From a virus (lineage: Duplodnaviria; Heunggongvirae; Uroviricota; Caudoviricetes): a DNA stretch of 27,123 nt. The stretch covers positions 1 through 27,123 of IMG/VR virus record IMGVR_UViG_2563366879_000003. One strand, 5' to 3'. Made by a program: the position numbers. Shown here piece by piece: positions 18,001 through 21,000 of the stretch; the stretch's first letter is position 1, and the number at the start of each line of letters is the position of its first letter.

Positions 18001-21000
18001 CGTTATCGTAAATCGCACGATTTCCCTGCGAAAACTGCAGATGAATATTTTGAGGGGTCGTTTCCCCAATCGTTTTCCTGTGCCGTACAATATCTGGATT
18101 TAATTCAGTGTAGGAACGCAGAATTGACGCAAGGGTGGATTTACCACGCCCATTATCAGCATAGACAAAGGTCATTTTTTTAAAGGACATACCAGCAGGA
18201 CGGATATCCTGGAATAAACCCACGCTGGTAATTTGATGAATTCTTTCAAGCATATAAATCCCTTTTTCTTCGCAATTTTTACCGCTGTGGATTGAGATTA
18301 GAACAAGATGAATACTAGTGCACCGTCCTACTAGGAGGATTTTTTCTGGTGTTGACTCCGTTTGGATGCAGTTAACATATCACGGTTCTGCTCCCCACAG
18401 ATTGATGCAGATAGATGTTAGTAACGTCTGCTCCTGGCACAAAGCGGACAACCACGCCAGATCTACCCTGTGCCATGAAAAATGAGAATGTCAATTCAAT
18501 CCTGAACTAATGCTTTTTAATCTAGTAACGTCTAAAATACCTAACATTATCCCTGATAAAATGCCAGTATGCGCTGCATAACTTCACTCATCCGGCACTC
18601 GCGACAGATTATGTTTAGGCGACTGTCGTAGCGACGTATTTCTCCATCAGGTAACGACCAGATAAGGTCCGGATCAACCACAGCTGTTTTCTTCACCTTT
18701 GCCCTCGAGAGTTTTTTGCGGGCGTTTTGCCAGTCCTTACGCGCCTGTTCAGACGGGAATAACCCGTAGCCGGAGTTGTATACATCGCCACTGGCTACCA
18801 GCTCTCTGGCAAGAACGCTCATCAGATATCTAGTCGCACCTGTTTTAGCTTCCAGTTGCCGTAACGTCTCACGACCGCTCTGGCGCACGAGTTCCACCAC
18901 CTGCCCTTTAATTTTTTCCCGCTCTTCTTGTGTAAAAACTTTTGCCACAAGTCCCCCTTAAAATTACCTCATGACCTGAAATCAAAACTTATCCTCTGAA
19001 ACCAGGCGGAATTTCTGTATCCGGTTCAGAAATATGATTAACACAACGCTGTACAGGTGAACGCCCTAGGCGGATGACCAGTTCGTCCCATTTTTCGCGG
19101 AGCTTTGACGGGCTCATGATGTTTTTTACCCAGAATGGATCCCGCTGTACCCGACCAAACATTTCACAAATTTGTCTGTGGCTTCTGCCATCCAGCATCC
19201 GCATTGTGCGCACATCATTGGCCCAGACAGTCCAGTTAGGCTCTTTTGGTCGCATGATCTCGCCATCATCACTGGCGGCCTGTTCGTAGAGACCCACGAT
19301 CCGCCCCCATATCCACTGCGCACACGCCAGATCCTCCTGGCTACCCCACTGGCGTTTTTTCGCACTAAACACAACTGCGCCAGGGTGCCGGATTAAAAAA
19401 TCCTGTTCAGCCGTCTGCGGGTCCGGTTGCGAAGCTTCCGGACGAAAAGTGTTTTTATTCTCTGTAGTAATCTCTGTTGTATTCTCTGTAGGATCATCGG
19501 GCCATTTTGACCCGATGACATTGGGTCGTTTTGAACCAATGGAGCGTTTCATTTTGACCTCTTCCATCGTGTCATTTTGACCTGATGGAGCGGCGCATTT
19601 TGAACCGATGGATTCGCTCAATTTGCCATCATCTAAAAGCTCGCTCCCATAGTTAATCGTGTAGAAATTGGTCATATCGCGCTTTGATTTATTGAGCTTT
19701 TCACAACGCAAAAGCCCCAGCGTTTTCAGACTTGCAAACGCGCGCTTTAACGTTGACTCTGACCAGAATGGGAACTGTTCCAGCCATTGTTCCGTTGTGT
19801 TGTAAATCCAGCGAACACCATCACATTCCATGCCGGAATTGGTATCTCTCAACCAGTAGTGCAGTTGTTGCAAAACAATGGCTTCGTTTAAGCCGATTTT
19901 CATTGCCAGCTGCGTGTTTATAACCAGTGGGCGTTCAGCAAAAAGAAGACTCATAATTCCATCCAGCTTTTTGTTGGTATTGCTGTCGATACGCAAGCTT
20001 GAAAGCAATTGCTTTTTCTATAAGTTCGTCAGTTTCACGATCTACAACGGCAGGATCTGCAAAAAGCAGTCCAGATTCCACCACATCGCCATATTCTTTA
20101 TTTAACCCGGCGATCATGTACGTAATACTTTTTCCATCACTGATCTCACGATACAACCTGAAATCACTAATCCGGATAGCCTCCATAATTGCAGGCACTA
20201 GCGCTGTGAACTTTTCACGCTTATCCCTGGTGTCGATAGCCTTCCAGCGTTCGAATATCTTCACTCGATTAACGCTAAGCGCTCGCTGATCAACCGCGCC
20301 ACCTTCATATGTGACACGCTGAACATCGATGTTCGGGCGCTCTTTCAAAGCCCAGAATGCTTCAGTGATTAATATCGTCGCCTGCTCCTGTGTCATTCCT
20401 GGTCGACATATCCAGGCATCCAGAGCCTCACGAGCCTGTTCAGGAGTGATTTTCATTGTTCAACCGCCCCGCCCGCTTCGTCTTACGATATTCGTCATAA
20501 ACTTTGGGATCATACTGAAGCTCCCCGCCAGATGCCTCCTGTAGACGCATCGCGCGACCTTCAGGAACCAGTATCCCCCAAGCAGCAACACTTGCCAGTC
20601 TCACTCCTGCGGCATTGGCAAGCTTTGTTTTGCTGCCAAAAAAAGTAATTGCGTCAACTTTAAGCATCAAAGCCCCCTCTTGTTAGACTTTTCTAACATT
20701 ATTGTGCGCGGGATACCTAAGTCAAGAAAAATTAGAATTACCTAACTATGGATACAAGAACCCTAGGCCAGCGAGTTCTGGCGCGACGAAAAGAATTACG
20801 CTTAACACAACGAGAAGCTGCGCGCCTCGCTGGAGTTGCTCACGTCACAATTTCACAATGGGAAAGAGACGAAACCCAGCCAGTCGGAAAACGATTGTTT
20901 GCTTTAGCGGATGCTCTGAAGTGCTCACCTACATGGCTAATGTTTGGTGACGAAGACAAGGCACCAGTGCCTGCACAAGAACTTCATGTGGAAACAGAGC

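Follow-up and report, generated by a model that had tools for sequence, protein, structure and literature searches.

A probable lambda-type replication origin, with palindromic iterons and a conserved 12-mer array, inside the initiator gene of a lambdoid prophage

We analysed a 27,123-nucleotide (nt) stretch of viral DNA (IMG/VR record IMGVR_UViG_2563366879_000003, positions 1 to 27,123; hereafter the window). The segment at about 19400-19636 is very likely the replication origin of a lambdoid prophage of the mEp460/HannyBb type, and we propose a mechanism for it below. It is embedded in the replication initiator gene of the prophage, which occupies 18989-19954 on the minus strand in the list of open reading frames (ORFs) and encodes 321 amino acids (aa) plus a stop. 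The predicted layout of the product is a winged-helix N-domain, a disordered linker, a lambda-O-like C-domain and a DnaT-like tail. An earlier note on this DNA had placed a lambda-like origin at 19441-19620; the repeats do lie there, but the element is larger. That the origin sits inside the initiator gene, as the note had also proposed, is supported by the conservation of the layout, by constraint on synonymous sites and by co-variation among relatives.

Five cores of the form CRTTTTGAMC were located at 19503, 19527, 19550, 19573 and 19596, with spacings of 24, 23, 23 and 23 nt, and a sixth, weaker unit (19611-19633) has the core CAATTTGCC. Four cores match the 15-nt consensus YRTTTTGAMCNNRTG exactly. 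When the whole window was scanned with this consensus at no more than one mismatch, six matches were found against 0.71 expected, and none of 100 shuffled sequences reached six. Tandem Repeats Finder independently reported the array (period 23, 3.7 copies) and also detected the 12-mer array described below. The core positions, the shuffle test and this program together confirm the five direct repeats at 23-24 bp spacing listed earlier. The good units are imperfect palindromes, such as CATCGGG-CCATTTTGA-CCCGATG. Unit 1 (CATCGGGCCATTTTGACCCGATG, 19495-19517) is the best palindrome and, as does unit 2 (CATTGGGTCGTTTTGAACCAATG, 19519-19541), combines a consensus match with dyad symmetry. Unit 3 (19542-19564) has kept the core CATTTTGACC with degenerate arms, units 4 (CATCGTGTCATTTTGACCTGATG, 19565-19587) and 5 (GAGCGGCGCATTTTGAACCGATG, 19588-19610) match the consensus, and the weak unit 6 (GATTCGCTCAATTTGCCATCATC) is in register with the 23-nt array. 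In the related loci L012-L018, the equivalent of unit 6 is a good GGTCAAAGTGACC site. Six phased direct repeats that contain dyad symmetry, of which four to five are strong, thus lie at 19495-19633, inside the initiator ORF and between the regions for its domains. Consensus scans of the whole window found no repeat cluster of the iteron or 12-mer kind elsewhere. Unit number varies in nature: a 290-aa E. coli variant (proteins P0018-P0023) has an exact in-frame deletion of 31 aa (93 nt) and has lost four iteron units. In what may be a related case, the O gene of Gifsy-2 in Salmonella D23580 is reported to be inactivated by a deletion of 71 bp, or about three units (PMC5322425).

Because the initiator gene lies on the minus strand, the order along transcription is iterons, 12-mers and A/T spacer, which bears out the order given in the earlier note. 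The three repeats that it had placed after the iterons are three tandem 12-mers, TATTCTCTGTAG / TAATCTCTGTTG / TATTCTCTGTAG, with a period of 12, at 19456-19491; the coding strand reads ACAGAGAnTAC and the encoded peptide is TENTTEITTENK. A short A/T spacer, GAAAAGTGTTTT (19444-19455), separates the 12-mers from an inverted repeat, GTCCGG-N11-CCGGAC (19421-19443), which is weak alone, since 9% of shuffles reach it. The spacer belongs to the segment of lowest stability. Among the 40-mers of the gene, 19452-19491 is the least stable, with a free energy of -44.6 kcal/mol vs a gene mean of -55.1 kcal/mol, and ranks in the top ~2.4% of the window. The A/T-rich tract of the earlier note stands as a stability minimum but is modest: the G+C content of 19441-19491 is 33% (48% for the gene), a long pure A/T run is absent, and the tract is weaker than that of lambda. 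We propose the 12-mer array as a candidate DNA unwinding and helicase-entry element. Locus L007 and protein P0100 have one additional 12-mer, read as an extra TENT.

Several observations indicate that these repeats are DNA elements and not a protein repeat. Since the period of 23 nt is not a multiple of three, the unit is translated in all three frames, which argues against a peptide repeat. Three units give (S/V)IGSK, in keeping with the SIGSK-like linker that had been claimed, and the region is predicted to be a disordered linker, but the other units read SGQND and EVKMK. We compared 12 enterobacterial genes and determined how often the same amino acid was encoded by the same codon. This same-codon identity was 0.75-0.95 for codons 107-185 (about 19400-19636), compared with 0.39-0.60 for codons 1-107, which encode the well conserved N-domain, and 0.34-0.38 after codon 185. 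Amino-acid identity is lower in the middle block, though the codons are most conserved there. We took this whole DNA-constrained block, 19400-19636, as the extent of the origin. The same was observed within the 12-mers. When TExT repeats were defined from the peptide alone in 36 distinct genes, Thr was ACA in 95 of 95 units and Glu was GAG in 90 of 90; elsewhere in those genes, ACA makes up 20% of Thr codons and GAG 47% of Glu codons. In the third codon of the repeat, the second base is free to vary, giving N, I, S or T. The reading that the earlier note had named as its refutation, a pure coding repeat with synonymous variation, is contradicted by the three-frame reading and by the conservation of synonymous sites.

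A scan of one genome per species for relatives gave 80 loci. Full-length relatives with as little as 30% identity (Trabulsiella, Edwardsiella, Scandinavium, Enterobacter, Photobacterium and others) have four to six units of 23/24 nt at the same position in the gene, directly followed by two to five copies of the 12-mer ACAGAGAnTAC. The sequence of the unit differs by lineage, relatives at 30-55% identity included (GGTCA-AAA-TGACC, GGACA-ATT-TGTCC, GTGCA-AAT-TGCAC, GATCA-AAA-TGATC). The third base of the half-site is tracked by residue 67 of the winged-helix domain, just before the invariant Thr68. The pairs are Ser and GGTCA, Asp and GGGCA or GTGCA, Lys and GGACA, Ala and GATCA, and Met and TATCA, and they hold over a range that extends from E. 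coli to Staphylococcus and Clostridia. Of the indirect evidence for recognition of the iterons by the N-domain, this co-variation is the strongest. In most lineages, a palindrome lies 10-25 nt past the 12-mers, and its arms co-vary (GGTTGCnnnGCAACC, GGTTTCtgcGAAACC, GGTTCCcgaGGAACC, GCAGAAttcTTCTGC); the mean arm length is 5.76 vs 4.20 in shuffles, each case being weak alone and the position consistent. The inverted repeat at 19421-19443 possibly corresponds to the palindrome that, in lambda, lies on the right of the A/T tract. The palindrome of L009 and L011 is identical to that of the lambda ori, GAATTCTGGCGAATCC, suggesting that the right half of such origins shares ancestry with ori-lambda.

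All the lineages examined have the 12-mers, which are nearly invariant across Proteobacteria, Firmicutes and a metagenome-assembled Anaerolineales genome (loci L004-L083 and L088-L207). Two tandem 12-mers occur in at least 120 viral contigs; among the matches listed, 81 have the N-domain of the window; the others either have an N-domain from one of at least four further winged-helix families or are truncated. Where other families were checked, the examples have iterons of their own, most with a 23-nt period. At least five families of N-domain and two types of C-domain occur with the array, indicating that it is not tied to the initiator family of the window. Our literature search returned nothing relevant on the 12-mer, the TENTTE peptide or the IPPGFRG motif, and an earlier description may exist. 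To our knowledge, the 12-mer has not been described as a sequence-specific unwinding or helicase-entry element. The paper on the Stx 'Eru' replication regions makes no mention of DnaT, primosomal, origin of replication, helicase loader, repeats or YdaT.

Of 5,426 complete E. coli genomes, 2,943 have a match to the origin block (19380-19660), and a single genome holds as many as four copies; 80% or more of the block is covered in 1,860 genomes. Among the full-length matches listed from RefSeq, 'hypothetical protein' is the only annotation that the gene bears. At 19455/19456, where the 12-mer array borders the A/T spacer, lies a mosaic breakpoint. In some E. coli genomes the match is limited to 19456-19660, which is joined there to a 'conserved phage C-terminal domain' protein; in O157:H7 and further genomes it is limited to 19381-19455, which is joined to a different N-domain of helix-turn-helix type. 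Some public records look mis-assigned (loci L004, L007, L051, L052 and L060). Contigs with full or 99% identity to this prophage gene of E. coli bear the labels of Bacillota, Veillonella or Collinsella metagenome-assembled genomes, and a staphylococcal-phage-like contig of 33% G+C is present in assemblies labelled Nocardioides and Micromonospora.

Sequence comparison of the initiator itself, together with a structure model, points to a protein of three parts, a predicted winged-helix N-domain of non-lambda type, a lambda-O-like C-domain and a DnaT-like tail. Their coding regions, all on the minus strand, are 19634-19954 for the DNA-binding N-domain (residues 1-107), 19064-19408 for the C-domain (about residues 183-297) and 18992-19057 for the tail (residues 300-321, ending in VNHISEPDTEIPPGFRG). 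An AlphaFold2 model of low confidence (mean predicted local distance difference test score, pLDDT, 53) has a winged helix at about residues 10-100, disorder at 101-180, a helical domain at 181-297 and a disordered tail; the disordered stretch in this model is exactly the part that the origin encodes. The C-domain shares 32% identity with phage 434 O over 169 aa (BLASTP, E value 3e-27). It also matches the O genes of lambda, 933W and phi80 (tblastn, E about 1e-17), with conserved motifs in the alignment. The likeness to DnaT does not extend beyond the final ~20 residues, VNHISEPDTEIPPGFRG vs VNTVSEPDSQIPPGFRG in DnaT (pattern SEPDxxIPPGFRG). When the C-domain profile was aligned with E. coli DnaT by hhalign, only the last 22 residues aligned, and a phmmer search against PDB chains matched only the tails of 2ru8, 6aep and 9zbt. 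The DnaT equivalog model NF002770 scored 16.3 bits against a cut-off of 201, matching only residues 302-321. The initiator had been called DnaT-like rather than lambda-O-like; these comparisons do not support that description.

Searches of Pfam and NCBIfam with the whole protein and with each half gave nothing except the 20-residue match to the DnaT tail. The N-domain had no Pfam match, Phage_rep_O (PF04492) included, even at E≤10, and a PDB sequence search with its profile gave no match. Residues 19-186 match PHROG profiles that bear the label 'DnaD-like helicase loader'. Two other descriptions were considered and rejected. A diverged lambda-O N-domain was discarded on an hhalign probability of 0.3% against phage 434 O. 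At the level of sequence, a diverged DnaT C-domain was discarded because hhalign aligned the tail only and the PDB profile search returned noise. The whole initiator matches PHROG 391 'replication initiation O-like' with an E value of 3.5e-92. Phages PhiR42_1, HannyBb and mEp460_ev081 carry an annotated coding sequence for it with 96-97% nucleotide identity to the gene of the window, under the names 'replication protein O', 'replication initiation O-like' and 'Primosomal protein I'. The last name is given to the phage protein by annotation pipelines because of the DnaT-like tail.

No P-, DnaC- or DnaB-like ORF was found in the six frames of the window or in the complete genome of HannyBb, a viable phage with the same gene (97% identity). 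The lack of a P/DnaC-like loader gene remarked on earlier was thus confirmed in both. To judge from viable phages that carry the gene at 96-97% identity, the module works without a loader gene. We sorted 151 distinct proteins by tail type and searched the 4.5 kb downstream of each for ORFs resembling P, DnaC or DnaB. Among 52 proteins with a DnaT-like tail, 51 had no loader or helicase gene, and for one (L178) a DnaC-like gene follows immediately. The two proteins with the GHWNSPEAWENTL (WExxL) tail were each directly followed by a lambda-P gene. The other 97 proteins had DnaB, DnaC or P in 57 cases and none in 40. Tail type and loader were associated at a Fisher p of 1e-13, without phylogenetic correction. 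The extreme C-terminus varies independently of the domain to which it is attached and goes with the loader, as in loci L008, L015, L040 and L178, and among 66 organism-labelled genome loci the DnaT-like tail is restricted to Enterobacterales. A Lactobacillus member, L078, ends in ...DDLPF, like the C-terminus of SSB. In the host, the gene next downstream of dnaT is dnaC.

The origin of lambda has the same order, iterons and then an A/T tract, inside O (PMC7466680). As in lambda ori/O and in the six-iteron Stx phages 933W and P27, the proposed origin of the window occupies the middle of the initiator gene, within linker-encoding DNA. It shares with lambda four to six phased palindromic iterons with a central CAAAA tract (TCCCTCAAAACGAGGGA in lambda, GGGTCAAAATGGCCC in the window) and a homologous C-terminal domain of the initiator. 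In both, a low-stability purine-rich tract follows in the direction of pR transcription (PMC7466680); the palindrome that comes next in lambda has a possible counterpart in the window. The two systems differ in several respects. The unwinding tract of the window would be a conserved 12-mer array at 33% G+C, whereas that of lambda is an A/T tract of ~40 bp. The window has no P gene, and the gene directly downstream of the initiator is DUF977 / Ren-like. Its initiator ends in a DnaT-like tail, in contrast to ...TDWIYGVDL in lambda, and its N-domain is not of the Phage_rep_O (PF04492) type of the lambda O family.

Replication modules with an O gene only have been surveyed in 2025, and the passages of this survey that we cite count 34 of 314 lambdoid phages, including phage LLS, in this class (PMC12315714). 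According to the same passages, no O-only phage had been studied and their replication 'is not yet understood'. By the description given there, the window belongs to this O-only lambdoid class; the passages contain no description of iterons, 12-mers or the tail (PMC12315714).

The last ~20 residues are nearly identical to those of E. coli DnaT (primosomal protein I), but the initiator shows no likeness to the oligomerisation N-domain, the PriB-binding linker or the three-helix domain for single-stranded DNA binding of DnaT. Some plasmid and phage initiators of Firmicutes are built on a related plan. In the RepA_N-type plasmid initiators (RepA of pSK41/pTZ2162) and in phage replisome organisers such as G38P of SPP1, a winged-helix N-domain binds iterons in its own gene and a variable C-domain handles host proteins. 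The initiator of the window has iterons within its gene and may resemble these in its N-domain, modelled with low confidence as a winged helix. It differs from them in having no Pfam match and in the period and sequences of the repeats. Another chimera is DopC, a domesticated O-like protein encoded beside the lambda-P-like DopE, in which a helix-turn-helix N-terminus of phage-initiator type is joined to a 'DnaT C-terminal motif', as in the window (PMC5509034). DopC indicates that the DnaT C-terminus can combine with initiator modules. It lacks a lambda-O C-domain and iterons and has a P-like loader adjacent, whereas the window has both and no loader. The oriJ/YdaU system of the Rac prophage of E. 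coli K-12 was considered and rejected, since its YdaU belongs to DUF1376 and the next gene encodes the DnaC-like YdaV. Rac and the window have in common only the cro/YdaS-like, cII/YdaT-like and DUF977/YdaW-like neighbours.

We propose that initiation would proceed in three steps. Dimers of the winged-helix N-domain would bind the six 23/24-bp units, imperfect palindromes around GGTCA-AAA-TGACC within the DNA for the disordered inter-domain linker, a step supported by the comparison of relatives. On these phased, A-tract-centred iterons, the initiator would wrap or bend the DNA, by analogy with the O-some of lambda. Again by analogy with lambda (PMC7466680), binding, negative supercoiling and transcription from a pR-like promoter would together open the 12-mers and the A/T spacer. 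The lambda-O-like C-domain and the DnaT-like tail would then bring in host DnaB, most likely by docking the DnaC-DnaB complex, as the correlation of tail and loader suggests. With such direct docking, the module would need no phage P or DnaC gene. We extend this tentatively, as a possibility that we rate somewhat below even, to a joint proposal. In the O-only initiators, the DnaT-like tail would dock host DnaC-DnaB; the tail of DnaT itself would be a recruitment element in replication restart; the C-terminus of the initiator would be an exchangeable motif specifying the loader; and the 12-mers would be a sequence-specific unwinding and helicase-entry element. The code would assign WExxL to lambda P and the DnaT-like tail to host or phage DnaC, with ...DDLPF ends in Firmicutes. 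For the 12-mers, the elements for comparison are the DnaA-trio and the DnaD-recognition elements.

Other explanations were weighed against this one. It is scarcely credible that the repeats merely encode a SIGSK/TENT linker peptide and have no role as DNA. The region does encode a predicted disordered linker, in which three units read (S/V)IGSK and the 12-mers read TENT/TEIT. However, the 23-nt period puts one DNA unit in three frames, every unit is palindromic, and the iteron sequence co-varies with a residue of the DNA-binding domain. Moreover, synonymous sites are more conserved here than in the structured domains, with Thr always ACA, Glu always GAG and a middle codon free among N, I, S and T. 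If the repeats act as DNA, they could still be initiator sites for autoregulation, copy control or exclusion, by titration, handcuffing or a transcription roadblock, with replication starting elsewhere in the prophage. In iteron plasmids, repeats serve initiation and control alike. We regard this as very improbable. The order of iterons, least stable tract and possible palindrome mirrors the mapped origin of lambda (PMC7466680), and homology with lambda is present in the C-domain and in part of the DNA on the right-hand side. The window has no other such repeat cluster, and in many mosaic contexts the block as a whole accompanies the initiator gene. A further explanation concerns the 12-mer array alone, which might be a recombination joint for the exchange of N-terminal specificity and C-terminal host-interaction modules, or a site for a conserved host factor, and not an unwinding element. 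The mosaic breakpoints exactly at 19455/19456 speak for it, as does the sharing of the array by at least five families of N-domain and by two types of C-domain. Yet a mere joint would hardly stay near-invariant from Firmicutes to Proteobacteria while its flanks are saturated with changes, and the array is the thermodynamic minimum of the gene at the place of the unwinding tract of lambda. We therefore consider this explanation unlikely, and the roles of joint and unwinding element are mutually compatible.

For the helicase step, recruitment through PriA/PriB is the main rival. Here the tail would stand in for DnaT in the PriA/PriB restart primosome and loading would require PriA, as it does in phage Mu and in replication of the ColE1 type. 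The near identity of the tail to that of DnaT favours this. DnaT reaches PriA by its C-terminal domain and PriB by its linker (PMC13377028), and its last residues form a flexible 20-residue tail whose function is unassigned (PMC5778457). On the other hand, the initiator lacks the linker and the three-helix domain with which DnaT contacts PriB and PriA. The type of tail also follows the adjacent loader, WExxL going with lambda P and the DnaT-like tail with none or, in L178, with a DnaC-like gene, and dnaT itself is directly upstream of dnaC. This pattern and the dnaT-dnaC adjacency point to the loader as the partner of the tail, and we judge the PriA-dependent route to be unlikely.

Several points weigh against the origin and the mechanism that we propose. 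We found no experimental study of this initiator family in the literature, and origin activity, iteron binding, 12-mer unwinding and the partner of the tail are all inferred. Two of the six iteron units are degenerate, and the unwinding tract at 33% G+C is far less A/T-rich than that of lambda. The low confidence of the structure model makes the domain limits and fold matches only indicative. The statistic for tail and loader treats related sequences as independent, and the 40 proteins with other tails and no nearby loader imply that the DnaT-like tail is not the sole loader-free solution. A 2026 cryo-electron microscopy study suggests that the N-domain of DnaT, and not its tail, recruits DnaB/DnaC, and calls the mechanism unknown (PMC13377028).

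The surroundings of the initiator gene are those of a lambdoid immunity and replication region. A cI-like repressor gene lies at 20748-21155 on the plus strand. On the minus strand are a cro-like gene (20440-20670), a cII/YdaT-like gene (19935-20456), the initiator and the DUF977 / Ren-like gene directly downstream of it (18547-18948). A pR-like promoter was predicted upstream of the cro / cII-like / initiator operon at 20698-20725 (minus strand) by a consensus scan, with 10 of 12 positions matching; transcription from it would run through the origin. An Rfam scan of 18800-20800 detected no RNA family. Close downstream of the replication module, between the DUF977 gene and the DUF968/Q region, lies a gene for an AAA_13 / SMC-like ATPase of 763 aa (15962-18253, minus strand), which may be a defence gene. 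At this position, related phages have other cargo, namely a methyltransferase, a transposase or a hypothetical gene.

The gene content of the prophage includes an integrase, a RecE-like exonuclease, Q, DUF968, an IS200 transposase, a tail fibre gene, cdtABC and ompT. Genes for the head and for lysis are absent from the window, and the prophage is degraded. At its far end are an omptin gene (1-954) and a cytolethal distending toxin operon (2693-4589) composed of a cdtA/C-type gene, a gene for a cdtB-type nuclease and a second cdtA/C-type gene. Their neighbours are the tail fibre gene, a macro-domain gene (6283-7185) and the IS200 transposase (10716-11225).

An origin in the initiator gene with iterons and an unwinding tract is textbook lambda biology, and in that respect the origin of the window is ordinary. 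It is a very common variant of the lambda-type origin, and its interest lies in the problem of O-only replication and in the leads offered by the 12-mers and the tail. The comparison yields an anatomy that can be used for automatic annotation, consisting of 23-nt palindromic iterons with a link between residue and half-site, an invariant 12-mer array and a palindrome. If true, the loader-free recruitment of the helicase through a DnaT-like tail would bear on how DnaT delivers DnaB/DnaC to restart forks. Since the prophage is degraded, with no head or lysis genes and a copy of IS200, firing of the origin after derepression would give local amplification in situ and not phage. Derepressed defective prophages could in this way over-replicate neighbouring genes, here the cytolethal distending toxin operon about 15 kb away.

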